A stretch of DNA of 64,000 nt, taken from Patescibacteria group bacterium. GTDB taxonomy: Bacteria > Patescibacteriota > Kazan-3B-28. Numbering within the stretch: the stretch's first letter is position 1; the number at the start of each line of letters is the position of its first letter. Made by a program: the position numbers and the translations under genes. Under the pieces are notes generated by a model. It saw only the letters and a list, made by a program, of their open reading frames with translations, did no database searches and was not told the DNA's origin. Location of the stretch: positions 99,037-163,036 of the forward strand of contig JBAZNQ010000001.1 in the NCBI GenBank assembly GCA_041649135.1. The letters are read 5' to 3'. This document shows positions 15,377 through 59,686 of this stretch, piece after piece.

Positions 15377-15562
15377 CGTCATTCTGGCCTGCCTGCCGGT
15401 GGGCAGGTAAGTCCAGCCCCGAAGGTGCCCCGTTGGGGTAGGACGCATCCAGAATCTTCCTCTCGTCATTCCCGCGCCACCTTCTGTCATTCCCGCTCCA
15501 CTCTTCGTCATTCCCATTTCTCTCTTCGTCATTCCCGCGAAGGCGGGAATCCAGAAAAGAAC
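15377..15562. repeat. Composite array of MITE-like palindromic repeats (GTCATTC... family)
   Basis: gtcattctgg...ccagaatc unit, then four tandem tcgtcattccc half-sites ending in the full hairpin gtcattcccgcgaaggcgggaatccagaaaagaaca. Confidence 0.8.
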
Positions 15563-15579
15563 ATAAACTTTTAACTCTT

Positions 15580-15620
15580 CACTCTTCACTCTTCACTCTT
15601 CACTCTTCACTCTTCACTGC
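15580..15620. repeat. Tandem heptamer repeat (ctcttca) x6 directly upstream of the next start codon
   Basis: ctcttcactcttcactcttcactcttcactcttcactcttcact. Confidence 0.8.
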
Positions 15621-15627
15621 CCCCATT

Positions 15628-18045
15628 ATGTCTTACCCCGAATTTATTGTTTTAGATATCGAATCCACCGGCGTCGACTCCAAACACGACGACATTATTG
15701 AATTCTCTGCCGTCAAACTCAATGCTGCAGGTGAAATTATCGATCAACTCGATACTCTAGTTTCCACCAAACTTCTGCCACTTCGCCCACTAGTAGTTGC
15801 TCTGACTGGCATTAAAGATGAAGATTTTGAAGGTCAGCCGAATTTGGAAGCAGTCTTACCCAAAATCGAAGCCTTCTGCGGCGATTTGCCGATAGTGGGT
15901 CATAACATCAGTTTTGATGTTGAATTTTTACATGCCAAAGGGTTGAGCTTGAAAGGCGACTTGCTCGATACGTTGGAACTTGCCCAAACAGTTCTTACCA
16001 AACAACCAGCTTATAGTTTGGAAGGTCTCTGCTGGCGGTTCAATTTTCCCCATCAACCGTCTCATCGCGCTATGGCTGATGTTTTGGCTACTGTTGATTT
16101 AATGAAATTCCTAAGCCAGCAAATTGCCGATCTTAAAGCCGGTACGCGCAAAAAGGTTTTGGATACTCTGCCGGAAAAATCTTGGAACTGGCGTTGGCTG
16201 TTTGCAGAATCTTCTTTTGTCATCCCGAGCGAAGAACGTTCGACGTTCGGAGCGAAGAATCTAGGACAAAGTCCGCACATCACTCCCCACACGAGCAGTC
16301 TGATCGGCAGTCTCAATCAGGCTGAACAATTCTTACCAGACATCAAAACCGCTGAAACCGGCAAAATCAATTTTATTGAAACCCATTTTTCAATTGACCA
16401 ACTGTCCCTTGCCCTAGCTCACGCCATTGCCAAAAAACCGGCTGTATTAGTCGTGCCATTCAACGCTTGGCGAGAAATTGATTGGGAAGCAGTCGGCCAA
16501 GCCCATAACCTTAAACTGGCCGTTCGTGATCGCCAAGAATTTTTCTATCAGGCAGATAGTGAACTGGAATTGGCCAAATCTATGCCGTCCATTTCCGCTA
16601 CCGAAGCAAAATTGATCACCAAAGTTATCTTGTGGCGCAACGAATGGGGGAGCGACCCGTCAAAATTGTATCTGGTAAATGATGAGCTCTATCAATGGGA
16701 ACAAAAATTTGCTCCCATTGAAGTAAAAAAATCTCAACTTCCCGAACATGAAAAAGTTGATCTAATTATTGCCACCACCAGTTCCGTATTAGAGTTGGAA
16801 AATTTGGCAAGATACAATATCATCGTGCTTGATCCATTGAGTGTCGAGGAATCAGCGATGCGTATTAAATCTCGCACTCTGTCGTTAAATTACTTTAGCG
16901 CACTAGTTTCAAGTCGTCGGGATTTTGTACATCTCCAGATTCGTCCCAAAGATGTCAAACTGGCAGATTCATTATTCAAAATTCTTAACGATGTTAGTAG
17001 CAAACTTGCGGCTTTGAGCCCCATGTTGGTGGCGTGGTACGCCGCTAATCCGCCCAGCAATGTCTTTGACCGCAATACCGAACTCTCCGGTGTCAACATG
17101 ACTGATGAATTGCGCAGTCAGCTTGATCTGATCATCGAAGACTTATCGCAATATCTTGGTGTTATCATTGATGCTAAATTGCCCAATTCTAAATCACAGA
17201 TCGAACATACTGAAAAATTGATTATTCATTTAAAGGCTCTCGAAACAACGGATCCTAGCTTTAGATATTTCCTCAACGCGATCGAAAATCGATTCTATTT
17301 GGATATTCTTCCCGCTCATCCAGATTTTTCACTACTAGAGCGAATTTTAACAGATAGCAAATCCTGTACCGTGTTAGGCGCTGGTTTGTCCGTTCAGGGC
17401 AGGTTCAATTATTGGCACCAATCATTTGGTGAATTTAATAGTAAAGTGCTCAAAGACGATACCCCATTGGAATTATTGTTAGTGAAAGACTTGCCGGAAG
17501 GTGATGACTATCTGGAAGCGATCGGTAAATTTTCTAGCCAGATGATCGCCAACAATCCCTATTCACTCGTTTTAACTGGTTCCGCTTATGATACCGAAGA
17601 GCTCTTTGATTGGTTGTTGGCTCCCGTTACGGAAGCTGGGATCGCTCTCTCTAGCGCCAACACAACCAAAGCATTGGAGAAATTACCTGACCTAGTTGGC
17701 GCCAATCGGCATCTGGGAATTGTGGCTTACTATTGGTGGCTGGAACGAGCTCGGTTGTATTTACCAAATTTTGATTTGCTCCTGCTCGGCAAAATTCCTT
17801 TCGATCCCAACAGCCGACCGCAAGCCAAAGTGATGCAAGGGGATAATAACGGTTTCGATAGCTATACGATCCCGCGCACCACAATGAAACTCAAGGAGGT
17901 GCTTCATACTGCTTCTTTAATGAATTTCAAAACTCTAGTTTTAGCCGACAGTCGATTGGTGAAAAAAGATTATGGCGAACGGATCATCGGCTCCCTCGAA
18001 GGCTTCGTCGTCATTCCCCAAACTAGCAAAGAACTTCTCGGATAA
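15628..18045 (+). CDS. DnaQ-like 3'-5' exonuclease domain fused to a large DinG-like C-terminal region (helicase motifs not recognisable)
   Basis: N-terminal DEDDh motifs: VLDIESTGVD (Exo I), GHNISFDVEFL (Exo II), HRAMADV (Exo III). No Walker A seen in the 600-aa C-terminal part. Contains an in-frame MITE-like insert at 16219-16264. Confidence 0.55.
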   Translation: MSYPEFIVLDIESTGVDSKHDDIIEFSAVKLNAAGEIIDQLDTLVSTKLLPLRPLVVALTGIKDEDFEGQPNLEAVLPKIEAFCGDLPIVGHNISFDVEFLHAKGLSLKGDLLDTLELAQTVLTKQPAYSLEGLCWRFNFPHQPSHRAMADVLATVDLMKFLSQQIADLKAGTRKKVLDTLPEKSWNWRWLFAESSFVIPSEERSTFGAKNLGQSPHITPHTSSLIGSLNQAEQFLPDIKTAETGKINFIETHFSIDQLSLALAHAIAKKPAVLVVPFNAWREIDWEAVGQAHNLKLAVRDRQEFFYQADSELELAKSMPSISATEAKLITKVILWRNEWGSDPSKLYLVNDELYQWEQKFAPIEVKKSQLPEHEKVDLIIATTSSVLELENLARYNIIVLDPLSVEESAMRIKSRTLSLNYFSALVSSRRDFVHLQIRPKDVKLADSLFKILNDVSSKLAALSPMLVAWYAANPPSNVFDRNTELSGVNMTDELRSQLDLIIEDLSQYLGVIIDAKLPNSKSQIEHTEKLIIHLKALETTDPSFRYFLNAIENRFYLDILPAHPDFSLLERILTDSKSCTVLGAGLSVQGRFNYWHQSFGEFNSKVLKDDTPLELLLVKDLPEGDDYLEAIGKFSSQMIANNPYSLVLTGSAYDTEELFDWLLAPVTEAGIALSSANTTKALEKLPDLVGANRHLGIVAYYWWLERARLYLPNFDLLLLGKIPFDPNSRPQAKVMQGDNNGFDSYTIPRTTMKLKEVLHTASLMNFKTLVLADSRLVKKDYGERIIGSLEGFVVIPQTSKELLG

Positions 18046-18048
18046 AAT

Positions 18049-18075
18049 AAAGGGTCGCATCATGCGACCCTTTAA
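18049..18075 (+). terminator. Terminator after the DnaQ/DinG-like gene
   Basis: gggtcgcat-cat-gcgaccc + ttt. Confidence 0.55.
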
Positions 18076-18292
18076 AGATCTCTTGGCTATCCGGAAGAAT
18101 AGCAGTCCCAACCATCGCCGTCCAACCCGCCGCTGGAGAAACCCAGCCTGAAGGCGAGTAAGACAAGGAAGCATCCTCCGAAGATGCCCCGCCAAATCCT
18201 TAGCAGCAAGGTACACCTCCACACGATAAAACTGCGATCAATATATCGTTTTTTGCGCTTCTGGTCAACAAAGTCAGGATATAGTGCTTATG

Positions 18293-18321
18293 TTGACAAA
18301 ATGCTCATCCTATGCTACAAT
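18293..18321 (+). promoter_or_regulatory. Consensus sigma70 promoter (TTGACA-17-TACAAT) followed by no ORF
   Basis: ttgacaaaatgctcatcctatgctacaat; perfect -35, near-perfect -10, 17-nt spacer. Downstream is structured noncoding sequence. Confidence 0.6.
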
Positions 18322-19044
18322 GAAATAATTTGGTAACCCCTGCAGTGTGCTTTGCTCTACTGCAGGGCCGACGAATCTTTGAAAATTCACCTGTCCAGCT
18401 CGCATAGCTTCATGACAAGCTTTGTTAGCAGGAAGAGTAGGGGAATGCGAGATATCACTCCCCCCAGTGGTGTCTCGCATTCCCTTACTGTCCCGTATCA
18501 AAACTAAAATAAAATTTAGTGTTTTTGTACCTTAGATGAAACAATATTCCCCGCCATTCCTATAGTGGTTTGGAGAACAAGACAGTCGAAATTGCAAAAT
18601 GGCATCATTGCCGGCTGATCTCTCGAAACTAGCATTGGAATGGAGGGGCGGGACGGGAGGTGAACCCTTCTTGTCCCCCTGACCGTGCCAAAGTTATTTA
18701 ATTTTGGGCCCGCTGATCAGGGGGACTTTTTTGACCCCTCGGGGTCAACCCTCCGTAGCGTTATCTATTTCGAGAAGAGGATAAATATCCTAATTCGAGA
18801 AGAGATGTACGCGTAGGACGGGTAAGTATCATTGATTTATGTCCCCCCGAGGGGATTACCAAATCAACCATCAGGGGGACTTTTTTATGCCCATATATCA
18901 GAATTTCTTGCACTATACTGAACGGCCGTTCAGTATATTGTATTGCACTAGTTTGACCCGATGGAGGATATGGGAAATAATCAAACCAGTAGCGGGGGAC
19001 ATTTTCTCCGCTCGTAACTTATAAATCGGTGCCGGAGGTACACC

Positions 19045-19494
19045 ATGGGTTGCGGTCACGAGCAGACACGCAGGTTTGAAGAGAACACCACGTTGGCTGG
19101 CTTTGGTATGGCAATGTTCACATTTCTTACGCTCATCCAGACCAATGGAATCACGGCCGAGAACTTTGATGAGTTTAAGTCTAACGTGTTGGCTAGGCTT
19201 GCCGAATATGGCAATCAACTCGGTTTCGGTGACCTCTTTAAACCTAGCGCCAAGACGGAGAGTGAAACAGCTGCCCTAAGTCACCAGTTGGGTTTATGTG
19301 GACCCCCTGTACCGCTGTTTCGTTGTCATCTGCAACAGCTCTATCGGCTGCTGAAACGTTCGCAGGAACCACGGACACAACAGGGATACTACGACTTAGG
19401 GTACGAGCTGGCAAAATTACTTCAGGATATCAACAATGAGATTACCGCTCTTCAGCAAGCGCGGGACAAGAGGGAAAGCTCTAGCTGTTCCTGA
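19045..19494 (+). CDS. Hypothetical protein (higher-GC islet)
   Basis: 149 aa; followed by a strong terminator at 19508-19545 (gccgctgacgg...ctatcagcggc + ttttt). Confidence 0.45.
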   Translation: MGCGHEQTRRFEENTTLAGFGMAMFTFLTLIQTNGITAENFDEFKSNVLARLAEYGNQLGFGDLFKPSAKTESETAALSHQLGLCGPPVPLFRCHLQQLYRLLKRSQEPRTQQGYYDLGYELAKLLQDINNEITALQQARDKRESSSCS

Positions 19495-19696
19495 AGTGTG
19501 AACGGGCAGACGCCAAATGCCGCTGACGGTTAAACTATCAGCGGCATTTTTATACCCCAAACCGTTTTTTTGTCATCCTCGGGCTTGACCCGGGGATCCA
19601 GACAAAAACAACAAAAAAGCCCATTTTCAGAAGATTTTTTACTCTCTAAAATCACCTATAAACAGCCAAAAATCGGCTCTGGGAGCAGAAAAAGTG

Positions 19697-19725
19697 TTGA
19701 CAAAAAATTAGGCTTGGAGTATGCT
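19697..19725 (+). promoter_or_regulatory. Sigma70-like promoter (TTGACA-17-TATGCT)
   Basis: ttgacaaaaaattaggcttggagtatgct. Confidence 0.45.
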
Positions 19726-19739
19726 CAAACTGTTGATGC

Positions 19740-19976
19740 GGGGGCGCACACTACAACTCGAAGACACTTTGAGGAGAGAGTCTGTGGCACCCGAAGCTTC
19801 GGGGCACGTTTTGTTTGCCGGCTTAGCCGGTCAGGATGATAGCGGAGGTCTGCTACTGTCATCCGGATAACAACATGGATACTAGTTAGCTTTAAACAAG
19901 CGGCTGGGAGATCTCTGTTCTCAAGGATACTTATATCCTTTCAGAAGAGATATCTCTTGGCCGCTTTTTTGTTTTT
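19740..19976 (+). ncRNA. Candidate small RNA (promoter to terminator, about 235 nt, no credible ORF)
   Basis: Hairpins gcacccgaagcttcggggc and gccggcttagccggt; ends in the long hairpin 19900-19963 + ccgctttttt gtttttt. Confidence 0.3.
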
Positions 19977-20202
19977 TCGCTCCCTGTCATTGCGAGGAGC
20001 GAGAGGGGAATGAGCGACGAAGCAACCTCATCATTTGTCGCAGGAATAGTGGAGAGGAGAGAGTGTTGTTCGGAAGCCGGCTACTAAATAATTATTTTTT
20101 GGCCCCTTGGTCTTCCGAGCTAACTCATCTCCACCATTCCCTCGATAAGCTGATTGGAAACAGTTAGTGAATCGGGAAGCAAATTGAAAAGGGAGGTGGC
20201 GT

Positions 20203-20745
20203 ATGGCCACCAAAACAGAAGAAGAGACAGTAGTAGTGGAGTGGGGGTTGGTGACTGGGTCACCAACCACCATTAAGCCCCGCATATTCGTGCGGGTGGC
20301 GAGCAACGGGAAGTCAGGGTTGTCGTCTCATTTTAGCGACGGAAGTCGTCCGACCCCCCCATCGGATTTGGGGAAGCGCCTCGAGCGCGTCGCGCGCGAG
20401 GTGCGAGGCCTTGGCCTCGGCGCCGAGGTCGTCGACGGCAAGGTTGTTGTCGACGGGCTGGTGTATCACAACACCATCCCCAACGGCCAAACGTTGGGGG
20501 TGGACGCTAGCGGACGACCCTACCTGACCGCCAACTCTCCCATAGTGGGAGAGCTGGCAGGACGGTTACTGCCGCCCTGCTCCGAGTGGGTAGAGCTAGG
20601 GGAAATTAGAGGAGCCTACTACGGCTCCGACGGTATGAGCATTGGCCAGCCCTTGCTACACACGGTCACCCTCTCCAACGGGGAGAGGGTATTGTTGGCT
20701 ATAGGAGGGGATATGGCCGACCTGACCATCTTCCCCCTTCCATAG
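20203..20745 (+). CDS. Hypothetical protein, strongly GC-rich (about 62%)
   Basis: Strong SD gggaggtggcgt-ATG; codon usage and GC differ sharply from the core genes. Confidence 0.5.
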   Translation: MATKTEEETVVVEWGLVTGSPTTIKPRIFVRVASNGKSGLSSHFSDGSRPTPPSDLGKRLERVAREVRGLGLGAEVVDGKVVVDGLVYHNTIPNGQTLGVDASGRPYLTANSPIVGELAGRLLPPCSEWVELGEIRGAYYGSDGMSIGQPLLHTVTLSNGERVLLAIGGDMADLTIFPLP

Positions 20746-21047
20746 CCTTTCCCTTTTCCCCGCGAGCATATGAGCCGCTCGCGCACCAAATCAAGCCGAA
20801 GCCGTGGCGGCCAAGTAGTCCACGGCGCTGGAGAAATCCAATGAAGCTGAACCTTTGGCCCCCTCTGCTCTTTCAAACAGAGGGGGCAGGGCACCTATGC
20901 CCAGAACTTCACCGCTGACAGGAAAAGCGTCAAGTGAAGAATAGGTGGGTGGCTCCCGTAACAGCCATTCCTCGTAAACTGTGTAGTTTGCCTGATGAGT
21001 CCAAAAGGACGAAAGGAATATATATAAAATAATTTAATAAAAATATT

Positions 21048-22094
21048 ATGAGTAATCAAGATTTGAATCCAGAACAAAATCGAGGCGAAATCGGGACTTC
21101 ATCTATTCAGTCAGAAGTTGACGGTACAATGGAAGTTACCCCAGAAGCCAAGGCTAACGATCCCGAAATTCAGCCCAAAATTGAAGGAAGTTTTGTGGTG
21201 CTTGATCCTCGTCCTCAAAGCTTAGACGCCATGATTGCATTAGTGTCTGCTACTCCAACTCTAGGTATCGAACTGACCGTCCCCGAAATTGCTAAACATT
21301 GTGTCGGCAATATTGACCCCCAACATAGTGAAGGGAAAAACATTTCTGCAATTGAAGCAGTCTCCAGCCCAGATTTTGAAATTCCTACTCCCGAAGTCCA
21401 ACTTGCAACAGTTCGGGCCGATAATGATGCTATCGGAGCTATGGCAGTCATTGGTTTGCGTCGAATTGGTGTCGAGCTTTCTGATGAAACTATGGTGCGG
21501 ATTGCCCGCATTGCTACCGGCGATAAAGCCAGAACCGGCAAATGGCAACCCGAAACCCGTTCCTTTGACGATCGTGATTGGGATTATGTCGGATTAGCTC
21601 GAATAGTGGCTGATTTTAAAAAGCCAGTTGCCGAACGTGTCCAACTAATGGCCGATTGGCTAATGACTGGCACTTGCGAAGGTAGTGACACTGCCATCGA
21701 CATCGTCAAACTTGAGTTGGCCGAAGCCATCGCTAAAACCGATGTTTGGGTGGAAGGGAGCGTTGCCCAAGTTAACGGTGAACATCGCGGGGCTATGGCC
21801 ATAGGCTACGAACAGGCTCCCGTTGTCATCGCCGCAAATCCCAACTTTAAAATTGCGGGTGGTGAACCTCATCTGAAATACACAGTCGGTCAGTGGAGTG
21901 CTGGCTATGCCGATCTTAAATCAGTGCTAGTAGAACTTCAGGCCCTAGAACCAGGTTGGGGCGGTAGCGACACCATTATTGGCTCTCCTCAAGGCGAATC
22001 TAGCCAACTCACAATGGAGCAGATTCTAGAAATAGTCGCTAAACACACAACCTTCGACGAATATAGATCAGAAGAAGACCAGATCATACTCTGA
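21048..22094 (+). CDS. Hypothetical protein (348 aa)
   Basis: Long ORF after an AT-rich promoter region; no recognisable motifs by eye. Confidence 0.45.
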   Translation: MSNQDLNPEQNRGEIGTSSIQSEVDGTMEVTPEAKANDPEIQPKIEGSFVVLDPRPQSLDAMIALVSATPTLGIELTVPEIAKHCVGNIDPQHSEGKNISAIEAVSSPDFEIPTPEVQLATVRADNDAIGAMAVIGLRRIGVELSDETMVRIARIATGDKARTGKWQPETRSFDDRDWDYVGLARIVADFKKPVAERVQLMADWLMTGTCEGSDTAIDIVKLELAEAIAKTDVWVEGSVAQVNGEHRGAMAIGYEQAPVVIAANPNFKIAGGEPHLKYTVGQWSAGYADLKSVLVELQALEPGWGGSDTIIGSPQGESSQLTMEQILEIVAKHTTFDEYRSEEDQIIL

Positions 22095-22190
22095 CTAACA
22101 CGCCGTCTCTCCGATCGAGAGGTTCGGGATATTAAAGCTGGGTCAAAGATTCTCGGAGTACGTGGCATCTCATGGAAAGAGCTACATAGG

Positions 22191-22781
22191 TTGCTACTTG
22201 AGGGGAAAGTGAACCGGGATACTGCAGAGTTTGCGGTCATTCAAGAGGAAGAAAAGCTGAAAGATACCCATCCCGAACCACCTGCCGGTACAATTGCTCT
22301 CTTTGATGGTAGTGAATTTGTTGACTGTGATAATGCCGTTTCTCTGCGACATCGGTTGGCAAACCGATTCGGAGAACTGGTAGTAGAATTTATACTTTCA
22401 CCGGACGACATCTCTCGCAGCCAGGGTATATATACCTTCAGGGATAGTTGGGGGCTAGATCCTAAATACACAGAAGTAGAGCCGGAGGTTTATGCGAGAG
22501 AGACGAAAGCAGTCGGAATAAGAGGTATATATGCCAGTTATAACGACATACCCCTTTCACCCGAGACTCTAGTAGAACAGTTGTTAGAATTCGTAGATGT
22601 TGGTCTAGATAAAGAAATATTAAAACATTCTGGTAGAGAAATATTGTCCTTGTTGCACTCGATGTGGTGGAATAAGGACATCACGCCCGAAGAATTCTAT
22701 GACTTATATGAATTCTTATCAGGTAAAGCAGAAGAAATAATTCGGCGTTCGGGTGGCTGCAAGCTAGACGAGCCCAAGTAG
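22191..22781 (+). CDS. Hypothetical protein (196 aa)
   Basis: ORF follows the previous gene on the same strand; the true start may be internal. Confidence 0.4.
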   Translation: MLLEGKVNRDTAEFAVIQEEEKLKDTHPEPPAGTIALFDGSEFVDCDNAVSLRHRLANRFGELVVEFILSPDDISRSQGIYTFRDSWGLDPKYTEVEPEVYARETKAVGIRGIYASYNDIPLSPETLVEQLLEFVDVGLDKEILKHSGREILSLLHSMWWNKDITPEEFYDLYEFLSGKAEEIIRRSGGCKLDEPK

Positions 22782-22816
22782 CTCTTCGACAAAGAACAAT
22801 AATCAACCAACTTTAA

Positions 22817-22948
22817 ATCTCCTCTTTTGTGCCGACAACGGAATGAGATTTGGAATGCGATTTTTATCCGCAAGGATAAAATCTCTCTCCTCGAGATCGC
22901 AAACTAAACCTCTTACTAGACACCAGTTGTCGGCACAAAAGAGGAGAT
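22817..22948. repeat. Perfect 23-bp terminal inverted repeats flanking an 86-bp structured core (tiny MITE or structured RNA)
   Basis: atctcctcttttgtgccgacaac ...(86 nt with nested ttttatcc-gcaa-ggataaaa hairpin)... gttgtcggcacaaaagaggagat. Confidence 0.7.
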
Positions 22949-23109
22949 AGACTGATAAAGCACATTGCCAATTAGTAAAAACGATTCCTTAAAAGCTTTT
23001 GAGGGCGGTATTTTGTGGATTAGCCAAGACTAGCCCACAGTAGTCCGCTCTCAATTGTGAGAGTAGGAGTGTATTCATGACTGCACTCCATAATTTCGGC
23101 TAGAAAGTC

Positions 23110-23499
23110 ATGAGTTCTAGTCGATTTTTCGTGAAGGAGACTAAGATGGTTGAGGCGATGATTAAGCTGGTTCGCCCTCAATTAGAGGGCCATTCAGACC
23201 CACTAGCCCTGTGCCAGTGGGCCGCCTTCAAAGTGGCCGAGGGGGTAGTAGCTACCACCAAAGCCAATTGGGCAACTTTCAAAACATATCCGTCATTGGA
23301 CGGATATACAATGGGGAAGTTACTCTTGCTGGTAGTCGCTGGCAAGGGCGAAGATTTTGCGGAAGAAGCTGGATATCTGTCAGAGTTGGCGATTTATGGC
23401 CCAAAAGGAGGGGAGGGAGCGTGGGTTGCCAGCTACTTGCTAGAATGCTATGAAGCACTCGAACTGATAGCTGACGCTCGCCACCTTTGGGTGGCATAG
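23110..23499 (+). CDS. Hypothetical protein (129 aa)
   Basis: ORF followed by terminator aaggcccgccg-caa-ggcgggcctt at 23519-23548. Confidence 0.45.
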   Translation: MSSSRFFVKETKMVEAMIKLVRPQLEGHSDPLALCQWAAFKVAEGVVATTKANWATFKTYPSLDGYTMGKLLLLVVAGKGEDFAEEAGYLSELAIYGPKGGEGAWVASYLLECYEALELIADARHLWVA

Positions 23500-23751
23500 A
23501 CACACCTGTAACTTTCAGCACAAGGCCCGCCGCAAGGCGGGCCTTTCACTTGTCCAAACGCCCATGGTCATACATAAATAATTTCGCCATTAGATGAACG
23601 ACCGTCCAGTATATTGCGAACATTTTAACCTCTATATGTCAAGTGACCATTCCTCCATTCCCCATTGGTTAGATTGGTGTAATCGGAAAAATTGATTAGA
23701 TTTGTCCCCATCCTCTAGATACTAGATGCTAAATGCTAGATACTAGTAAGT

Positions 23752-24114
23752 ATGGACAACAGCTATTTACCGGGGATAGGAATTGCGACTGGGATGACAC
23801 TAGCGGCGTGGTTGTTAGTGTTATTTTATTTTGATCCAACCACTTCTGGCGTTCCCGGTATCACTTTATTTTTTATCAGTCTAGCGGCTACTTTAATAGG
23901 TATATTGATTTTAATTTTCAATTATCTCCGCTATCGTTTTGCCAAAACGCCCGCCTCATTTGGTGTTACCATCAGGCAGGCTGTCTTGTTAGGGCTGGCC
24001 GTCTCGGGTATCCTACTATTGTTGGCTCTGGACAAGCTAAATTGGTGGAACGGGGTCGCCATCGTAGTGGCTGGTATAGTTATTGAATCCTATGCGCTGA
24101 TCAAACCGGAATAA
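23752..24114 (+). CDS. Small membrane protein (3 TM), hypothetical
   Basis: 120 aa, hydrophobic; preceded by ctagata/ctagatg tandem repeats. Confidence 0.45.
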   Translation: MDNSYLPGIGIATGMTLAAWLLVLFYFDPTTSGVPGITLFFISLAATLIGILILIFNYLRYRFAKTPASFGVTIRQAVLLGLAVSGILLLLALDKLNWWNGVAIVVAGIVIESYALIKPE

Positions 24115-24164
24115 AAGAAATCTAACCAATCTAGCCAACCTTCGCCAATCTAACCAATCAAGCC

Positions 24165-24252
24165 GTCATTCTGGTAAGCGAAGCGCATCCAGAATCGTAT
24201 AAAAAATTAAATAAGATTCTGGTCCCTGGCCGAGCAGGCAAGCCAGAATGAC
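24165..24252. repeat. MITE-like palindromic element (gtcattctgg ... gccagaatgac variant)
   Basis: gtcattctggtaagcgaagcgcatccagaatcgtat...aagattctggtccctggccgagcaggcaagccagaatgac. Confidence 0.75.
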
Positions 24253-24261
24253 CAATACAGC

Positions 24262-25242
24262 ATGAAAGATAAACTCCAAAAAATTCTTGATTCTGCTCGC
24301 AAAGAAATTACTTCAGCTCAACCTGAAGCGTATGAAGATTTGCGAGTAAAGTATCTTGGCCGGAAGGCCGAGTTGAGTTTGCTATTGCGTCAGCTTGCCG
24401 ACCTATCTTTGGAAGAAAAAGTCGAACTGGGTAGTTTTGGCAACCAAGTGAAGACTGAAATTACTGAACTGTTAAAGCAATTAAAACGATCTCCAGCCGA
24501 AGGTAAATTACAAAACTTTGATCCGACTATTCCGGGAATTATTCAACCGCTCGGCCATCTTCATCCAGTTACCCAAACTACGTATGAACTGATAGACATT
24601 TTCAGAGGTCTTGGCTACGACGTTGCGACTGGTCCTGAAGTTGAATTGGAAAAATATAATTTCGACATGCTAAATATCCCTGCCGATCATCCAGCCCGTG
24701 ATCAGTGGGATACTTTTTGGGTCAAGCAAGAAGATGGTGGTAAAGATAATACTCTCCTCCGGACTCATACTTCGCCCGTTCAGATCCGTTATATGCTGGA
24801 ACACAAACCGCCGATCCGCATTATTAGCCCCGGCCGAACTTTTCGTTACGAAGCCGAAGATGCTACTCATAGCTCTGTTTTCTATCAACTTGAAGGACTG
24901 GTGGTTGACGAGGGGATTACGGTCGCCAATCTCAAAGCCACCCTGCAGACCATGATGCAACAGGTGATCGGTTCGGAAGCCAAAATCCGCCTTCGTCCCA
25001 GCTTCTTCCCATTCACCGAACCAAGCTTTGAAATGGATGTCTGGTTTCAGAACAAGTGGTTAGAGCTGATGGGCTGCGGCATGGTCAATCCAATTGTCTT
25101 AAAAAACTGTGGCATTAATCCTGACAAATATTCTGGTTTCGCTTTTGGTGTCGGTATCGACCGACTGGTCATGCTCAAATACAACATCAAAGACATCCGC
25201 TATTTCCTGTCTGGTAATTTAGAATTTTTAGAGCAGTTTTAA
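24262..25242 (+). CDS. pheS: Phenylalanine--tRNA ligase alpha subunit
   Basis: Class II aaRS motifs: FRYEAEDATHSSVFYQLEGL, FFPFTEPSFE, GCGMVNP, GFAFGVGIDRL. Confidence 0.9.
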   Translation: MKDKLQKILDSARKEITSAQPEAYEDLRVKYLGRKAELSLLLRQLADLSLEEKVELGSFGNQVKTEITELLKQLKRSPAEGKLQNFDPTIPGIIQPLGHLHPVTQTTYELIDIFRGLGYDVATGPEVELEKYNFDMLNIPADHPARDQWDTFWVKQEDGGKDNTLLRTHTSPVQIRYMLEHKPPIRIISPGRTFRYEAEDATHSSVFYQLEGLVVDEGITVANLKATLQTMMQQVIGSEAKIRLRPSFFPFTEPSFEMDVWFQNKWLELMGCGMVNPIVLKNCGINPDKYSGFAFGVGIDRLVMLKYNIKDIRYFLSGNLEFLEQF

Positions 25243-25263
25243 ACTGTCACTTCTTGCTTTCTC

Positions 25264-25507
25264 TGTCATTCCCGCTCCACCTTTCGTTGTTCCCACCTCG
25301 CTCTTCGTCATTCCCGCGAAGGCGGGAATCCAGAAAAGAAAAAAGAACAACCCACAAAATGTCTGCTTATGTCTACATTCTTGCCAGCAATAAAAATGGC
25401 ATCGAGCATGGAAAATAAGAATCATTGAAGAGCAGAACCCGCAATGGAAAGATTTATTTCAAGAAATTTTAATTTAATGTCTGGATTCCCGCCTACGCGG
25501 GAATGAC
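25264..25507. mobile_element. Palindromic element carrying an internally deleted GIY-YIG gene remnant (degenerate copy of the 39.4-kb element)
   Basis: Left arm tgtcattcccgc...gtcattcccgcgaaggcgggaatccagaaaag and right arm ctggattcccgcctacgcgggaatgac. Between them, 25359-25477 encodes MSAYVYILASNKNG fused to ...QNPQWKDLFQEILI*. This is the N- and C-termini of the GIY-YIG protein, joined at an AAAAATGG microhomology. Confidence 0.75.
25359..25477 (+). pseudogene. GIY-YIG nuclease gene remnant (internal deletion)
   Basis: The first 14 codons and last about 20 codons are colinear with the CDS at 39515-39802; the middle about 170 nt is missing. Confidence 0.7.
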
Positions 25508-25512
25508 GAGTA

Positions 25513-27786
25513 ATGAAATTTTCCTACAACTACCTCAAAAAAATCCTTAAGTTCAAAAAAACTCCTCAAGAAATTGCGGAGCTGATGGATTTGCATATTA
25601 CCGAAGTTGAATCGGTTTTGGCTAATGCCGCGTTTACCAAAGTGGTGGTAGGGGAGATCTTGGAAATTCGCGATCATCCCAATGCCGACAAACTTCATCT
25701 CACCAAAGTTGATATTGGTACCGAAACCTTGAATGTGGTTTGTGGAGCTGCCAATATTGCCGTTGGTCAAAAAGTGCCGCTAGCACTAGTTGGAGCCGTG
25801 CTTCCTAACGGACTAGAAATAAAGGAGGCTGTCATTCGTGGTGAAAAATCCTTTGGGATGATTTGTAGCGAAACCGAACTTGGTCTGGCGGATAAATCTG
25901 ACGGCATTTTGGTCTTGAGATCATCAGCCATTCCGGGTACACCAGTTGAGGAAATTCTGGACACCAATACTGATACGATCATCGAGCCCAAAATTCTCTC
26001 TAATCGTCCTGACTTTATGTCGTATGTCGGTATGAGCCGGGAACTAGCAGCAGTATTGAATATCGATTATCAACCAACTATCGATACTAAATTTATCGAG
26101 TCCAACGTCAAAACTATGACCGCTCTTGCCGTAAAGGTGGAAGATACCAAGTTGTGTCCTCGTTATCTGGGGCGGGTAGTCAGAAATATTACTGTCAAAT
26201 CTTCACCCAAGTGGATGCAGGATGTCTTAAATGCTTCTGGTCTTCGGCCGATAAATAATATCGTCGATATCGCCAACTTCGTCATGTTGGAACTTGGTAA
26301 TCCCATTCACACTTTTGATTATGCCAAGGTAGGGGATGGGGAAGTCGTTGTGCGCAATGCTCATGATGGTGAGACTCTCGTTTGTTTGGATGGTGTTGAG
26401 CGCAAATTAGATAACAAAACTTTGATTATCGCAGACAGTAAAAACCCAATTGCGATCGCTGGCATCATTGGAGGGGAGGAGAGCGGGGTTTCTGACCAAA
26501 CTCGTGATTTAGTCGTTGAGGTCGCCGCCTTCGAAAAAACCTCAATTCGCCGGACATCAAAAAGATTGGGAATTGCGACTGACGCTGAATTGCATTTTGA
26601 AAGGGGAGTGACTCCCCTTTCGCCAGAAAAAGCAATGGAGCGGGTCCTCAATTTAATTCAGGCCGACTCCCCTGCCTGCGAAATTCTAGCCGGCAATCTG
26701 GATGTTCACGGCAAATTGCCTTCACCGTTTTCGCTTTTACGCGTTTCAGTAGAGGGGATCAATCAATTACTTGGGATTACGATTTCTGCTCAACAAATGG
26801 CGGGGACATTGAATAAACTTGATTTGCCAACCGAAATTCGTCGCAATGATCTAGTGATTAAAGTCCCCGCCTATCGGGCTGATATTGTTGGGATGTCGGA
26901 CATTGCTGAAGAAGTTTTGCGGATTTATGGAGCCGACCAAATCCCCTTCGTTATGCCGCAAATTACTGGTAAGCCGTTTGAAATGCCGGAAATTGAAAAA
27001 GTCAAAATGCAAATTCGCGAACTGATGGTTCGACTTGGTTTTACTGAAGTTTACACTCATCCATTTGATGATCTAAAAAACGACAAACACAAAGTTGCTA
27101 TTAAAAATCCCTTAAGTGAGGGTTGGGTTTATTTAGTCGATAATTTAAGCACCAATTTAGTCGCGTTGGATATCAATCGGCCTAATTATCGGATCTTTGA
27201 GCTCGGGACTACTTTTCATGACTACGGCGAGACCTTGCCTGCCGAAGAGCAACAACTGGCAGTGCTGATCAAAGGGGCTGATGCTTATCGCATTGCTCGA
27301 GGAGTTGTCGATCAATTAATTCGCGAACTTGGTCTCAATTTGCGAATGACCGAATTTATTCACTATTCTGGTTTGCTTTTACAATTACCCAACCAAGACA
27401 TCGTGGTGGGTAGTCTTTCGGCTTTGGATGAACATCGAGCCGCATTCGTATTAGAAATTAGCCGGCTGATGCCTCATATTGCTTCGGCCAAGCACTTTAT
27501 TGAGATCAACAAATTCCCCGCTATTAAAATGGACATGGCGTTTATTATTCGTTCTGAAGTTAGGATCGGGGAGTTACAAACTCTAATTCAAGACATCGAC
27601 AAATTAGTTGATACAGTTGAGTTGTTTGATGTTTTTGAACTACCCAAAGATGGAAATCGTTCCGTGGCATTCCATATTGAACTGCGAGCTAATGATAGAA
27701 CCCTCACTAACACCGAACGTGATGATATTCACGCTAAAATTGTTGAGGCCGCCAAAGTCCGATTCGACGCCAAGCTAAGAGAATAG
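25513..27786 (+). CDS. pheT: Phenylalanine--tRNA ligase beta subunit
   Basis: N-terminal tRNA-binding OB domain (GEILEIRDHPNADKLHLTKVDIG), B3/B4 and B5 regions; 757 aa. Confidence 0.9.
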   Translation: MKFSYNYLKKILKFKKTPQEIAELMDLHITEVESVLANAAFTKVVVGEILEIRDHPNADKLHLTKVDIGTETLNVVCGAANIAVGQKVPLALVGAVLPNGLEIKEAVIRGEKSFGMICSETELGLADKSDGILVLRSSAIPGTPVEEILDTNTDTIIEPKILSNRPDFMSYVGMSRELAAVLNIDYQPTIDTKFIESNVKTMTALAVKVEDTKLCPRYLGRVVRNITVKSSPKWMQDVLNASGLRPINNIVDIANFVMLELGNPIHTFDYAKVGDGEVVVRNAHDGETLVCLDGVERKLDNKTLIIADSKNPIAIAGIIGGEESGVSDQTRDLVVEVAAFEKTSIRRTSKRLGIATDAELHFERGVTPLSPEKAMERVLNLIQADSPACEILAGNLDVHGKLPSPFSLLRVSVEGINQLLGITISAQQMAGTLNKLDLPTEIRRNDLVIKVPAYRADIVGMSDIAEEVLRIYGADQIPFVMPQITGKPFEMPEIEKVKMQIRELMVRLGFTEVYTHPFDDLKNDKHKVAIKNPLSEGWVYLVDNLSTNLVALDINRPNYRIFELGTTFHDYGETLPAEEQQLAVLIKGADAYRIARGVVDQLIRELGLNLRMTEFIHYSGLLLQLPNQDIVVGSLSALDEHRAAFVLEISRLMPHIASAKHFIEINKFPAIKMDMAFIIRSEVRIGELQTLIQDIDKLVDTVELFDVFELPKDGNRSVAFHIELRANDRTLTNTERDDIHAKIVEAAKVRFDAKLRE

Positions 27787-28774: not shown

Positions 28775-29020
28775 AACGTAACCTCCTCCTTTTTACCACC
28801 GTAGTTAGGAAACCTATTCCAACCACTTGCCATTCTATCTCAACCCCGCTCCCAGTCAATTTTCCACTGTCATTGCGAGGAGCCCAGAGGTGTCGAGGGG
28901 CGACGCGGCAATCTACTTTTTGTCATATCCAAAATCTTGCTCCATAGGATAAAATCAGGTACAATTGAGGTAGCAATTTCGCCCCTAAGGCGACTTTCCG
29001 TATGGTCTTAATTACCTGTC

Positions 29021-29110
29021 ATTCCCGCGGAGGCGGGAATCCAGAAAAGAACAGAAAAATGTTTTTGTTTCTGTCTGGATCCCCAATCAAGTTGGGGATG
29101 ACGACTAAGA
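29021..29110. repeat. Full-length two-hairpin MITE-like element upstream of gyrB
   Basis: gtcattcccgcggaggcgggaatccagaaaagaacagaaaaatg tttttgtttctgtctggatcccc-aatcaagtt-ggggatgac; the right half is an imperfect reverse complement of the left. Confidence 0.8.
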
Positions 29111-29125: not shown

Positions 29126-31174
29126 ATGCCTGACGACAATAAAAAAACTAGCGGTTCCTACGGTGCAAAAGATATTCAGGTCCTAGAAGGGCTTGAGCCA
29201 GTTCGCAAACGCCCCGGTATGTATATCGGCTCCACCTCGGTGGAGGGTCTTCACCATATGATTTGGGAGGTGGTCGATAACTCTATTGATGAAGCCATGG
29301 CCGGTCACGGCACGATGGTGGAAGTTATTATTCACAAAGACGGCAAGGTAACCGTGATTGATGATGGTCGCGGCATCCCAACCGAGATACATCCTCAAAC
29401 CAAGAAGTCCACCCTTGAAACTGTTTTAACCACTCTTCATGCCGGTGGTAAGTTCGGCGGCGAAGGTTACAAAGTTTCCGGTGGTTTACATGGTGTGGGC
29501 GTGTCAGTTGTCAACGCCCTGTCTGATTTTATGCGGGTAGAAGTAACCCGTGATGGCAAAACTCATGCCCAAGAATATTCCAAAGGTATCGCCACCAGTT
29601 CAGCCAAAGTGATCAACAAAGATGTCAAAGGACATGGTACAAAAATAACTTTTCATGCCGACAAAACCATCTTTGATGACAACGAAGGGTACGAATGGAA
29701 AACCGTTCTCGAACATTTGAAACAGCAAGCTTATCTCACCAAAGGCGTTTTTGTAAAAATTCACGATGAACGTTCGGGCGAATCGCAGGAATTCAAATTT
29801 GAAGGCGGAGTGCAGTCATATGTCGAAGATTTAGATAAAAACAAGACTCCGCTCTTCACTCCACCATTTTATATCGACAAAGAACGCAACAATGTCCAAG
29901 TTGAATTGTCGATTCAATACACGGAAGATTTTAATGAAACGCTCAAAGCTTTTGCTAATAATATTTACAATCCCGAAGGCGGAACTCACGTAATTGGTTT
30001 TCGTACCGCGTTAACTCGCATTTTAAATGCTTACGCTAAAAAAACGGGGATTATCAAAGAAGCGAAAGATGCTTTATCGGGCGACGATGTTCGCGAAGGT
30101 CTGACCGCCGTTATTTCTGTCAAACTGGCGAATCCCCAATTTGAAGGTCAGACTAAAGCCAAGTTGGGTAATGCCAATGTTCGGACTGCCGTCGATGCGG
30201 TAATGTCCGATTATTTCAATAACTACCTTGAGGAGCATCCTTCAGAAGCTCGTCGGATTATCAGTAAGACCATGTTGGCTGCCAGAGCCCGCCTAGCGGC
30301 GCGTCAGGCGCGTGAAACGGTACTGCGCAAAGGTATCCTCGAAGGTATGACCCTGCCGGGGAAACTAGCCGACTGTTCCAACCGAGATCCATCCAAATCA
30401 GAGATCTTCATTGTCGAGGGTGAGTCTGCCGGTGGTTCCGCCAAAAGTGGACGTGATCGTCAGTTCCAAGCTATTTTGCCTTTACGTGGGAAAATTTTGA
30501 ACGTAGAAAAAGCTCGGCTGGATCGCATGTTATCTTCCGAGGAAATTAAAGTTTTGATCATTGCCCTTGGTGCCGGTATTGCTGAACAATTCAATGTTGA
30601 TAAAATTCGTTACCATCGCGTAATTATTATGACTGATGCCGATGTTGATGGTGCGCACATTAGAACTTTGCTTTTGACTTTCTTCTACCGCTACATGCGC
30701 GCCATTATCGACCGCGGCTATCTCTATATTGGCCAGCCGCCACTGTATCAGCTTAAGTCTGGCAAAGATGTGCGCTGGGTTTATTCTGACGAAGAGAAGG
30801 ATAAAGTAATGAAAGACATGCAGGAAGCCGCTGCCAAGAAGAAGGAAGGCAAGAAAGCTAAGATGGAAACCGATGACACCGCCATCGTCATTCCCGCGGA
30901 GGCGGGAATCCAGACCGAAACAGAAACCATCGCCGAAGATTTGTCATCTACTAAAGGTATTGCGATCCAACGTTACAAAGGTCTTGGAGAAATGAATCCA
31001 AGCCAACTTTGGGAAACCACTATGGATCCTGCTAATCGGATTATTCACCGTGTTACTGTTGATGATGCCGAAATCGCTGATGACATCTTTTCCACCCTCA
31101 TGGGAGACGACGTTGCCCCCCGCAAGAAATTCATCGAAGATAACGCCCAATTCGTCCAGAATCTGGACGTGTAA
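29126..31174 (+). CDS. gyrB: DNA gyrase subunit B, carrying an in-frame repeat-derived insertion
   Basis: GHKL ATPase motifs (EVVDNSIDEA, GLHGVGVSVVNALS), TOPRIM (EGESAGGSAK, IMTDADVDGAHI), C-terminal QRYKGLGEMN. Codons VIPAEAGIQ at 30886-30913 are encoded by gtcattcccgcggaggcgggaatccag. Confidence 0.9.
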   Translation: MPDDNKKTSGSYGAKDIQVLEGLEPVRKRPGMYIGSTSVEGLHHMIWEVVDNSIDEAMAGHGTMVEVIIHKDGKVTVIDDGRGIPTEIHPQTKKSTLETVLTTLHAGGKFGGEGYKVSGGLHGVGVSVVNALSDFMRVEVTRDGKTHAQEYSKGIATSSAKVINKDVKGHGTKITFHADKTIFDDNEGYEWKTVLEHLKQQAYLTKGVFVKIHDERSGESQEFKFEGGVQSYVEDLDKNKTPLFTPPFYIDKERNNVQVELSIQYTEDFNETLKAFANNIYNPEGGTHVIGFRTALTRILNAYAKKTGIIKEAKDALSGDDVREGLTAVISVKLANPQFEGQTKAKLGNANVRTAVDAVMSDYFNNYLEEHPSEARRIISKTMLAARARLAARQARETVLRKGILEGMTLPGKLADCSNRDPSKSEIFIVEGESAGGSAKSGRDRQFQAILPLRGKILNVEKARLDRMLSSEEIKVLIIALGAGIAEQFNVDKIRYHRVIIMTDADVDGAHIRTLLLTFFYRYMRAIIDRGYLYIGQPPLYQLKSGKDVRWVYSDEEKDKVMKDMQEAAAKKKEGKKAKMETDDTAIVIPAEAGIQTETETIAEDLSSTKGIAIQRYKGLGEMNPSQLWETTMDPANRIIHRVTVDDAEIADDIFSTLMGDDVAPRKKFIEDNAQFVQNLDV

Positions 31175-32770: not shown

Positions 32771-32878
32771 TAGTTAACAGTTAATAGTGAACAGTTAAGG
32801 AAAAATTATTTAATAAATTGTCGCTTGCGACACCAAAACTATTCACCCTTCACTTTTAACTTTTCACTGACTTTCGCT

Positions 32879-34545: not shown

Positions 34546-34572
34546 AAAAAACCGCCACAGGCGGCTACCAAA
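34546..34572 (-). terminator. Terminator for rpmA (T-run on minus strand), possibly bidirectional
   Basis: Minus-strand reading ggtagccgcctgtggcggttttttgtg. Confidence 0.55.
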
Positions 34573-34607
34573 ATTATTCACTATTCACTTTTAACTATTG
34601 ACCCGTC

Positions 34608-39430: not shown

Positions 39431-39439
39431 GCCTCCCTG

Positions 39440-39833
39440 TTCGTCATTCCCGCTCCACTCTTCGTCATTCCCGCGTAGGCGGGAATCCAGAAAGAAAAAA
39501 TAACAATCTATGAAATGTCTGCTTATGTCTACATCTTAGCCAATGGCAAAAATGGGACCTTATACACCGGCGTGACAGTACCATTGGTCAAGAGGGTGTA
39601 CGAACACAAGAGCAAATTTATTTCTGGATTCGCTGAACAATACAACGCAACCGACCTAGTCTATTACGAAATATTTGACGATATAGAAAACGCTATTCTT
39701 CGCGAAAAACATATCAAAAAATGGCATCGAGAATGGAAAATTAAATTGATCGAGAAAAATAATCCACAATGGAAAGATCTATACCAAGAAATTTTAGTTT
39801 AATGTCTGGATTCCCGCCTTTGCGGGAATGACG
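39440..39833. mobile_element. Full-length palindromic element carrying an intact GIY-YIG nuclease gene; candidate autonomous parent of the MITE family
   Basis: Left arm ttcgtcattcccgctccactcttcgtcattcccgcgtaggcgggaatccagaaag; right arm tctggattcccgcctttgcgggaatgac; 288-nt ORF in between. Confidence 0.7.
39515..39802 (+). CDS. GIY-YIG nuclease superfamily protein (YhbQ/UPF0213-like, 95 aa)
   Basis: MSAYVYILANGKNGTLYTGVTVPLVKRVYEHK (GIY-N10-YTG motif with a conserved R and E); a remnant paralog at 25359-25477. Confidence 0.75.
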   Translation: MSAYVYILANGKNGTLYTGVTVPLVKRVYEHKSKFISGFAEQYNATDLVYYEIFDDIENAILREKHIKKWHREWKIKLIEKNNPQWKDLYQEILV

Positions 39834-39883
39834 AACGTATGGCCAAGTGGTGGAATGGTATAGTGCACCCCATAAAATTTTTT

Positions 39884-39970
39884 GGCTCGGTGGCGGAACT
39901 GGTATACGCGCACGACTCAAAATCGTGTATCCGCAAGGATGTGTGGGTTCGATTCCCACCCGAGCCACCA
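39884..39970 (+). tRNA. tRNA-Leu (anticodon CAA), class II with long variable arm, CCA encoded
   Basis: Acceptor GGCTCGG/CCGAGCC, anticodon stem-loop cacga-CTCAAAA-tcgtg, 16-nt variable arm, T-arm tgggTTCGATTccca, ACCA end. Confidence 0.8.
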
Positions 39971-40039
39971 AAAAATTCAACGGGGCACGCAACGACTTCC
40001 ACCGTCGTTCAATCTCACTCCAACTAGGTCATTTGCCTC

Positions 40040-40112
40040 TTGGAGTATAGATATCACTTTGGCGGACAGGCGCCATCGTGTGGGGCAACCCTTGAGAGTT
40101 CGAGTCTCTCCT
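40040..40112 (+). other. tRNA-like 3' half (T-arm + acceptor 3' strand + CCA) with no recognisable 5' half
   Basis: gagagTTCGAGTctctc ctcggcc a cca. Its last 20 nt are repeated at 40256-40275; the strong hairpin 40113-40162 lies between them. Confidence 0.35.
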
Positions 40113-40335
40113 CGGCCACCAAGAGCGAGAATCCAACTTGTTTGGATCTTGGCTCTTGGTAGATTAAAAAAGACGAGAAGCAAGGTCCGCCACAATGCAA
40201 TCTATATCGCAAGAGACGAATGATCTATTTGCGATGAGATTAAATGACGGCGGAAGTCTCTCCTCGGCCACCAAAATAGAAAGTTAGCTCTCAACATAGG
40301 TTATTCTGCTCATCCCTCTTGACAGAGTGGCTTAG

Positions 40336-47605: not shown

Positions 47606-47658
47606 ACCACGCCGAAGACGCCACCAAAACTGTTCACCTTTAACGATTAACTTGTCTT

Positions 47659-48816: not shown

Positions 48817-48867
48817 CTCAACGAGCGAAGGATGGAACCAGAGGATCCAGTCCCACCCTTTGTTATT

Positions 48868-49040
48868 CTCGGACTTGATCCGAGAATCCAGAAAAGAACA
48901 GAAAAAATGTTTTTGTTTCTGGCTGGATTCCCCAATCAAGTTGGGAAATGACAACAGAAACTTAAGAATAACCAAAAGTCCACCGTCATTCTGGTAAGGT
49001 CGACGCAGCGACCGCATCCAGAATCGTATAAGTGACGATG
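48868..49040. repeat. Two adjacent MITE-like elements
   Basis: ctcggacttgatccgagaatccagaaaagaacagaaaaaatgtttttgtttctggctggattcccc...gggaaatgac followed by gtcattctggtaaggtcgacgcagcgaccgcatccagaatcgtat. Confidence 0.75.
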
Positions 49041-49094: not shown

Positions 49095-49260
49095 CGCAAT
49101 GGTCATCCTCGAGCTGAGTGCCGTAGGCAACTCGACGTCGGGGACCCAGACAGAAACAGCCAACAAAAACTTTTTCTTTTTTGTCTGGATTCCCGCCTAC
49201 CTGCCCGAAGTGCTACACCGTTGCAGGCGGGCGCGGGAATGACGAAGAGGAGGGCTCATA
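49095..49260. repeat. MITE-like element (gtcatcctcgag...gggaatgac variant)
   Basis: cgtcatcctcgagctgagtgccgtaggcaactcgacgtcggggacccagacagaaacag...ttgtctggattcccgcctacc...gcgggaatgacg. Confidence 0.75.
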
Positions 49261-53469: not shown

Positions 53470-53612
53470 CGTCATCCTCGAGCCGAGTGCCGTAGGCAAC
53501 TCGACATCGGGGATCCAGAAAAAACAAAACATTTGGTTTCCCGACGAACAGAGGGACCACCCATTTCCCTTTCTCGTCATTCTGGCTTGTCCAGAATCTT
53601 ATAAAGCGATAC
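53470..53612. repeat. Two MITE-like elements (one partial)
   Basis: gtcatcctcgagccgagtgccgtaggcaactcgacatcggggatccagaaaaaacaaaac ... cgtcattctggcttgtccagaatcttat. Confidence 0.7.
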
Positions 53613-59510: not shown

Positions 59511-59686
59511 ACAAAAAACAGCGCCGCAGGCACCACCAAAACTTTTTCATCGCAGATCCTTCGACCTGTCCGCCATAGCTTTAGCGACGGAGGAAGCCTT
59601 GGCGGAGGAGGACCATTCACTTTTAACTTTCTGCTATCTCAAATTATTCACTGTTCACTATTCACTTTTAACTTTTCATTATCTCT

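Follow-up and report, generated by a model that had tools for sequence, protein, structure and literature searches.

What lies between pheS and pheT in this patescibacterium, how did it come to be there, and does it bear on the expression of pheT? The spacer is 270 nt long (25243–25512) and holds a wrecked ssnA gene, still framed by both of its hairpin recognition sites. In a first-pass annotation of the window, i.e., the whole 64,000-nt stretch of DNA that was analyzed, the locus was taken to be a decayed second copy of the GIY-YIG element found intact at 39515–39802, with pheT now expressed from the element's promoter. We consider it about 75% probable that the remnant is an NTS-ssnA-NTS cassette killed by an in-place 169-nt microhomology deletion, that its arms are still potential substrates, and that pheT is read through from pheS. 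The features are as follows.

24262–25242, + strand: pheS, phenylalanyl-tRNA synthetase alpha (Pfam tRNA-synt_2d, 3e-98, and Phe_tRNA-synt_N)
25262–25303, + strand: two half-NTS units in tandem, 21 nt each, lying outside the left arm (repeat families D3 and D4)
25306–25333, + strand: left NTS/SRM hairpin, CGTCATTCCCGCGAAGGCGGGAATCCAG, an exact fit to the Neisseria NTS consensus (PMC11893778)
25334–25358, + strand: A-rich spacer, the former 5′ leader of ssnA (alignments to the 39515 element and to relatives)
25359–25391, + strand: ssnA 5′ remnant, codons 1–11 (MSAYVYILASN; alignment)
25392–25399, + strand: deletion junction, AAAAATGG, a hybrid of the codons for K12-N13-G14 and K68-K69-W70 (alignment)
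25400–25477, + strand: ssnA 3′ remnant, which in the old frame reads KWHRAWKIRIIEEQNPQWKDLFQEILI and then a stop (alignment and translation)
25481–25508, − strand: right NTS/SRM hairpin, CGTCATTCCCGCGTAGGCGGGAATCCAG on that strand (hairpin pattern scan)
25513–27786, + strand: pheT, phenylalanyl-tRNA synthetase beta (Pfam B3_4, tRNA_bind, B5, and FDX-ACB)
39441–39490, + strand: one half-NTS unit and the left NTS (39463–39490) of the intact cassette
39515–39802, + strand: intact ssnA homologue, 95 aa, GIY-YIG only (Pfam PF01541, 3.3e-15)
39806–39833, − strand: right NTS of the intact cassette (SRM pattern scan)

When 25262–25510 is aligned to the intact element at 39431–39845, both ends align without gaps (repeat families D7 and D12). 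The left hairpins, 25306–25333 and 39463–39490, are identical at 27 of 28 bases, and the right hairpins, 25481–25508 and 39806–39833 on the − strand, at 26 of 28. The ORF-derived DNA is 79% identical to the 39515 gene (94/119), with 25/33 (76%) in the 5′ part, 25359–25391, and 69/86 (80%), ungapped, in the 3′ part, 25392–25477. A single gap of 169 nt separates the two parts. Thus, the earlier description of an internally deleted, non-functional GIY-YIG copy with both arms retained and about 80% identity in the retained segments is borne out. The pairwise alignment that had been suggested as a check, 25359–25477 against 39515–39802, aligns the ORF-derived segments, and the similarity is not limited to the arms.

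The remnant keeps only codons 1–14 and 68–95 and is frameshifted; that is, it is a pseudogene, with Y6 present and Y17 and E64 deleted. Its present ORF, 25359–25418, reads MSAYVYILASNKNGIEHGK and then a stop. Outside the left arm, the first of the two half-NTS units reads TCTGTCATTCCCGCTCCACCT and the second is a decayed TTCGTTGTTCCCACCTCGCTC. Both arms read CGTC-ATTCCC...GGGAAT-C-CAG, so that the published cleavage and binding bases are all present, and each arm, as ssDNA, is predicted to fold into the expected 8-bp hairpin. Between the last base of the right hairpin, 25508, and the pheT ATG there are 4 nt.

Ssn proteins form a family within the GIY-YIG superfamily and act as endonucleases that cut ssDNA at specific sites (Chenal et al., Nat Commun 2025, PMC11893778). 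SsnA of N. meningitidis, a 94-aa protein matching cd10448, binds the NTS, consensus CGTCATTCCCGCGMAVGCGGGAATCYRG, solely as ssDNA; ssDNA is cleaved, and dsDNA and RNA are not substrates. The Neisseria and Wolbachia enzymes cut a few nt 5′ of the NTS/SRM hairpin. Alanine mutants of Neisseria SsnA at Y6, Y17, and E64 are inactive, and NTS mutagenesis has shown that the 3 nt 5′ of the palindrome (GTC) are critical for cleavage and the C just 3′ of it for binding. An SRM is found near at least one side of 71% of Ssn homologues, and on both sides of 42% (PMC11893778 throughout).

Membership of the Ssn family was judged by published features, i.e., protein size, domain, the residues Y6, Y17, and E64, and flanking inverted hairpins. 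PF01541 spans residues 3–76 of the protein encoded at 39515–39802, and Pfam finds no second domain. The protein is 100% identical to P0001, from a Patescibacteria MAG, and a database search returned more than 2,500 homologues of 93–135 aa and 55–83% identity, the fetched loci coming from many phyla. Y6, Y17, and E64 are invariant, with the same numbering, in 27 sequences (the window protein and 26 homologues). Most of 80 homologue loci have a ATTCCCGC-N4-GCGGGAAT hairpin at about −35 and about +7 of the gene, and among the flanking stems some carry compensatory variants (CTGC/GCAG, CGGC/GCCG). For the hairpin core TTCCCGC-N4-GCGGGAA, the window has 8 matches where 0.01 would be expected; the published degenerate SRM pattern likewise has 8, against 0.11 expected from Markov simulations. 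Both arms of both copies match the SRM pattern: 25306–25333 (+), 25481–25508 (−), 39463–39490 (+), and 39806–39833 (−). The 64-kb window has only one intact ssnA gene, that at 39515–39802.

An NCBIfam search with the 39515 protein assigned no family, and a PDB sequence search with it found no solved relative. Rfam, run on the whole window at gathering thresholds, gave two tRNAs only; the hairpins fit no RNA family. A remnant of a homing endonuclease or an intron was ruled out, as there is no intron and no disrupted host gene. Judged on sequence, the spacer element is no novel type but a dead member of the Ssn/NTS family, which was described in 2025. The first-pass annotation had the GIY-YIG domain (PF01541) right; the identity of the Ssn/NTS cassette was missing from it.

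How was the gene lost? AAAAATGG is found twice in the intact gene (39548–39555 and 39717–39724) and once in the remnant, at the junction, 25392–25399, in agreement with the 8-nt direct repeat reported before. The 169-nt loss fuses K12-N13-G14 (AAA AAT GG) to K68-K69-W70 (A AAA AAT GG). The two octamers are in different reading frames, hence the product is a frameshifted 19-codon stub. A role for this 19-codon ORF as an attenuator leader peptide for pheST was considered and rejected, since the ORF is that stub.

In the old frame, the 3′ part of the remnant is open across 28 codons. The remnant and the local intact gene differ at 17 codons, of which 8 are synonymous changes and 9 are mostly conservative ones, e.g., K/R, L/I, Y/F, and V/I. 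The predominance of synonymous and conservative changes, together with the open old frame, indicates that most of the 21% divergence arose while both genes coded. The deletion thus appears to be the inactivating event, and the gene to have been broken by it rather than worn down gradually. The identity of about 80% to the 39515 gene reflects mostly coding divergence.

The shared octamer reflects K-N-G and K-K-W being conserved motifs, both so spelled under A/T-rich codon usage. The microhomology is thus built into the ssnA family by these two motifs. The K-N-G and K-K-W sites have at least 7 nt in common in 15 of 74 intact homologues, and at least 8 nt in 7 of them. When a degenerate junction pattern was searched for in the window, the fetched loci, and metagenome contigs, it was found in the window's organism and in one unrelated element, the metagenomic L086. 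This element has the same K-N-G|K-K-W junction in different codons and has longer, different arms, GCGTCATCCTCGAGAGCGCGAAGCGCGAGTCGGGGATCCAG; its 3′ remnant, in the old frame, reads as an Ssn C-terminus. The same junction in an unrelated element points to independent recurrence, and speaks for ssnA having been lost repeatedly through slipped-strand or microhomology-mediated deletion.

To place the remnant among its kin, the pheS–pheT spacers of relatives were fetched and ordered by PheS identity to the window's PheS. Their contents are as follows.

L092/L093, PheS 86%: arm pair without a gene, other stems
L095, PheS 85%: an Ssn-type gene of another kind, its arms being GTCATTCTGAG...GAAGAATC, and half-NTS units left over
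L087, PheS 83%: intact 95-aa ssnA with NTS arms, same orientation
L094, PheS 82%: arm pair without a gene, other stems
L089, PheS 77%: intact 95-aa ssnA with NTS arms, same orientation
L090, PheS 65%: intact 95-aa ssnA with NTS arms, same orientation
L096, PheS 65%: arm pair without a gene, other stems

All relatives examined have an arm pair in the spacer, and in none is it empty. Across the 119 ORF bases that are left, the remnant has 79.0% identity with the 39515 gene and 79.8–80.7% with the genes of L087, L089, and L090. The remnant leader and the pheS–pheT copy of L087 have AACCCAC in common. As the remnant is no closer to the 39515 gene, nothing marks it as that gene's duplicate, and the shared position between pheS and pheT argues for its descent from a pheS–pheT copy. 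The 119 bases are too few to tell a pheS–pheT orthologue from a separate insertion at a favored site. The other Ssn type in L095, and the gene-less pairs in L092, L094, and L096, indicate that turnover and re-insertion occur in this spacer.

These comparisons bear on the earlier proposal that a second copy of the 39515 element inserted in front of pheT, decayed by point mutation to about 80% identity, and lost its middle, leaving pheT to use the element's promoter. The two copies do have the same architecture and arms, and that at 39515 is the sole intact copy in the window. The presence of an intact gene at the same site in L087, L089, and L090 nevertheless makes such a duplication improbable, as do the skew of the changes toward synonymous and conservative ones and a remnant equally close to the genes of other species. 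What stands of the "second copy" is the type of element; what does not is the local duplicate.

Two further observations concern this neighborhood. The Ssn-type GIY-YIG gene of L095 (2482–2918; MNKSWYVYIATNYNNNVLYTG...), with GTCATTCTGAGTGAAGCGAAGAATC arms, is preceded in the spacer by leftovers of two other arm types, which suggests successive insertions beside existing hairpins. Upstream of pheS, about 5.7 kb (18046–23751) lie between an RNase_T-domain gene (15628–18045) and a 120-aa ORF (23752–24114). The same two genes are 0.3–0.8 kb apart in L087, L090, L092, and L094–L096, so the window's extra DNA is a lineage-specific insertion; it includes an SRM at 19571–19601.

The promoter proposed for pheT found no support. 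A scan of 24000–26000 for sigma-70-like promoters and intrinsic terminators found none in 25243–25512, which is weak evidence, as the promoter rules of Patescibacteria are poorly known. pheS, the remnant, and pheT are all co-oriented. In the window, L087, L089, and L090, the right arm stops 3–9 nt short of the pheT ATG, and an arm abutting pheT in relatives as well means that the layout is old and compatible with pheT expression. Both the scan and the shared layout also count against the duplication just discussed. The simplest reading, and the most likely one, is that pheT is co-transcribed with pheS by read-through across the remnant.

As RNA, the arms are predicted to form a long-range duplex of about 30 bp that encloses the remnant (MFE −81.1 kcal/mol, z = −5.2). 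The remnant, or at least its arm pair, could then have acquired a role in regulating pheST at the RNA level, the duplex gating translation or serving as an RNase III site, a role that would be compatible with the in-place deletion. The duplex would end a few bases before the pheT start. Its predicted stability and an arm pair in the spacer of every relative examined speak for such a role, but such pairing is automatic for any inverted repeat. Moreover, the arm stems vary between relatives and the published SsnA is inactive on RNA (PMC11893778). We regard the co-option as unlikely.

Was the element already short when it arrived? A non-autonomous, MITE-like element, inserted in its deleted form and mobilized in trans by SsnA, would find parallels in the gene-less two-arm units of the window (29016–29105, 48858–48952, and 49102–49250) and of the relatives' spacers. 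It is very unlikely here, because only one copy with this junction is found in the window and the fetched loci, and the lone metagenome match, L086, has unrelated arms and sequence. A junction pattern confined to its own organism and one unrelated element is not that of a proliferating MITE, and the coding-like conservation, together with the intact syntenic genes, points to deletion in place. That the deletion is an assembly artefact is scarcely credible: the short-read assemblies L084 and L085 do break at this repeat, but assemblers use k-mers much longer than 8 nt, copies 79% identical cannot collapse, and the spacer is identical in a second assembly record of the organism (L083).

The repeats do trouble assembly and annotation. 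Short-read contigs L084, L085, L088, and L091 terminate within the pheS–pheT hairpins or at their margins, which indicates that hairpin repeats fragment assemblies. One spurious ORF made by the hairpin repeats is at 25228–25425 (− strand; ...WIPAFAGMT...). For annotators, such repeats account for both the contig breaks and the spurious "VIPAKAGI / SFPRRRES / IPAFAGMT" ORFs.

The preferred history, deletion in place, would run as follows. An NTS-ssnA-NTS cassette sits between pheS and pheT, co-oriented with them, in this Patescibacteria clade. In the window's lineage, its ssnA would have lost 169 nt by slipped-strand or microhomology-mediated deletion, fusing the two AAAAATGG octamers that encode K-N-G and K-K-W. 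The resulting 19-codon stub, without Y17 and E64, should yield no enzyme. Since the arms retain the critical GTC and C, they are potential ssDNA substrates for the intact SsnA of 39515–39802, which may act on them in trans whenever this DNA is in single-stranded form. If the published cutting geometry applies, cleavage would fall just outside each arm and on opposite strands: near 25302/25303 on the + strand, and 1–2 nt from the pheT ATG on the − strand.

On its own, the remnant is an ordinary pseudogene, useful as one frame in a decay series of Ssn cassettes. Taken with the relatives, it shows that Ssn cassettes occupy fixed operon spacers in Patescibacteria and turn over there, and that they are repeatedly inactivated at a microhomology made by the family's own conserved motifs.

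The window holds other hairpins and repeats of this kind. Half-NTS tandem arrays, made of 19–23-nt units that include the 5′ half only (e.g., TTCGTCATTCCCGCTCCACTC), lie on the outer 5′ side of full hairpins. They are found at 15462–15524, 25262–25303, and 39441–39461, and also in L034, L046, L040, L030, L090, and others. A half-site is present within 70 nt on the 5′ side of 20 of 125 NTS-like sites, and on the 3′ side of 0 of 125; the 5′ side is that of reported SsnA cutting. The word "tandem" is absent from the main text of the Ssn paper (PMC11893778). A second hairpin of about 32 nt, CCCGCCTGCAACGACGTAGCATCTCGGGCAGG, is found within the left NTS loop of the intact cassette in L002 (about 2930–2975), which is another assembly of the same organism (JGI 3300037067); the insert is missing from the window and from L001. 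A closely similar loop insert occurs in the NTS at 49186–49250 of the window, and L089 (2726–2776) is a further site of this kind. The insert has the look of a nested element with NTS loops as its target, carried by some populations and not by others.

More SRM-type hairpins, with GTCAT...ATCCAG flanks and other stems, are located at 29016–29105, 48858–48952, 48984–49025, 49102–49250, 53471–53520, 53574–53600, and 19571–19601, several of them being gene-less two-arm units joined by CCAGAAAAGAACAGAAAAATGTTTTTGTTTCTGTCTGG. Short CTCTTCA / TTCACT repeats, tandem or dispersed, lie upstream of several genes (15565–15618, 32832–32867, 34567–34602, 47623–47658, and 59612–59685), one of them directly 3′ of the NTS at 15527–15554.

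Do these cassettes move? The NTS-ssnA-NTS arrangement has been likened to the layout of an insertion sequence, with movement not demonstrated (PMC11893778), and our literature search on Ssn mobility, or on Ssn in Patescibacteria, found nothing later than that paper. In the window, the whole cassette lies in the spacer between glyA and tRNA-Leu. The same spacer has just an arm pair, with no gene, in L098 and is empty in L099, where 13 nt separate the glyA stop from the tRNA. L098 is on the same contig as L087, the pheS–pheT copy of which is intact; it follows that the two sites have swapped states between relatives. The cassette borders show no direct repeat of the kind left by target-site duplication, and the two window copies are not near-identical, at only 79% in ORF DNA. 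Occupied and empty sites give comparative support for gain and loss, without proving self-mobilization; they likewise favor, short of proof, the idea that Ssn/NTS units behave like insertion sequences.

We tentatively entertain, at somewhat less than even odds, the idea that NTS-ssnA-NTS units are true mobile elements built on a GIY-YIG ssDNA nuclease, which colonize spacers, decay by a recurrent path, and leave half-site footprints. Cassettes would colonize spacers just 3′ of housekeeping genes in Patescibacteria. An intact gene would first undergo the K-N-G/K-K-W deletion and then be reduced to an arm pair with no gene or to a solo hairpin; some of these would end up in frame inside essential genes. 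The polar 5′ half-site arrays would have been left by cleavage and rejoining. Such mobility fits, but is not proven by, the occupied and empty sites, the swapped locus states, and the strict 5′ polarity of the arrays.

The tRNA gene beside the glyA cassette has a structure of its own. The tRNA-Leu(CAA) gene of the relatives L099 and L097 is split in the window (39841–40273). Its first 22 nt are at 39841–39862 and its last 47 nt, 100% identical, at 40075–40121, with an extra copy of the last 19 nt at 40255–40273 and a complete but divergent tRNA-Leu(CAA) between the split halves, at 39884–39970. The layout resembles integration scars at a tRNA gene, and L098 has a similar arrangement of outer stem and inner tRNA.

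How do these elements compare with known systems? Two complete NTS copies of the window are in frame inside essential genes, at 30886–30913 in gyrB (29126–31174) and 51633–51660 in gltX (50917–52233), whereas only 2% of the NTS copies in N. meningitidis are genic (PMC11893778). The peptides encoded are ...AIVIPAEAGIQTE... in gyrB and ...SSSVIPAKAGIYSL... in gltX. Comparison with solved GluRS structures shows the gltX copy to be a 5–6 aa loop insertion; the gyrB copy falls in a variable linker, which has no aligned counterpart in solved GyrB. Rickettsia palindromic elements are short palindromic repeats inserted in frame in protein-coding genes. The gyrB and gltX copies are like them in placement, a likeness that does not concern the pheS–pheT remnant.

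The REP/BIME elements with their RAYTs, and the REPINs (PMC2817692, PMC3333891, PMC3116915), also have a small nuclease gene between inverted hairpin copies, with the same hairpin dispersed in the genome singly or as inverted pairs. The differences are in the enzyme fold, which is GIY-YIG rather than HUH/Y1, in the hairpin sequence, and in that Ssn is without demonstrated transposition. No HUH Y1 transposase (Y1_Tnp) lies between the window hairpins, where the sole Pfam match is GIY-YIG. The Neisseria dRS3 repeats of the NIMEs (ATTCCC-N8-GGGAAT) have an identical palindrome core, which ATTCCCGCGAAGGCGGGAAT fits; unlike dRS3, defined as a bare 20-bp palindrome, the window copies add the oriented CGTC...CCAG flanks, i.e., those of the NTS.

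The closest match is the Ssn/NTS system itself (PMC11893778). The window gene encodes 95 aa, as compared to 94 aa, with a single GIY-YIG domain and Y6, Y17, and E64. Inverted hairpins lie on both sides, the left arm agrees with the Neisseria NTS consensus at each base, and SRM-type hairpins are dispersed through the genome in both cases. Besides its genic NTS copies, the window departs from the published system in other respects: the pheS–pheT copy is a frameshifted deletion remnant, the cassette is placed within the spacer of a housekeeping operon, and the host is a Patescibacteria MAG, of a phylum absent from the main text of the Ssn paper. The range of the Ssn family is thereby extended to a phylum with tiny genomes.
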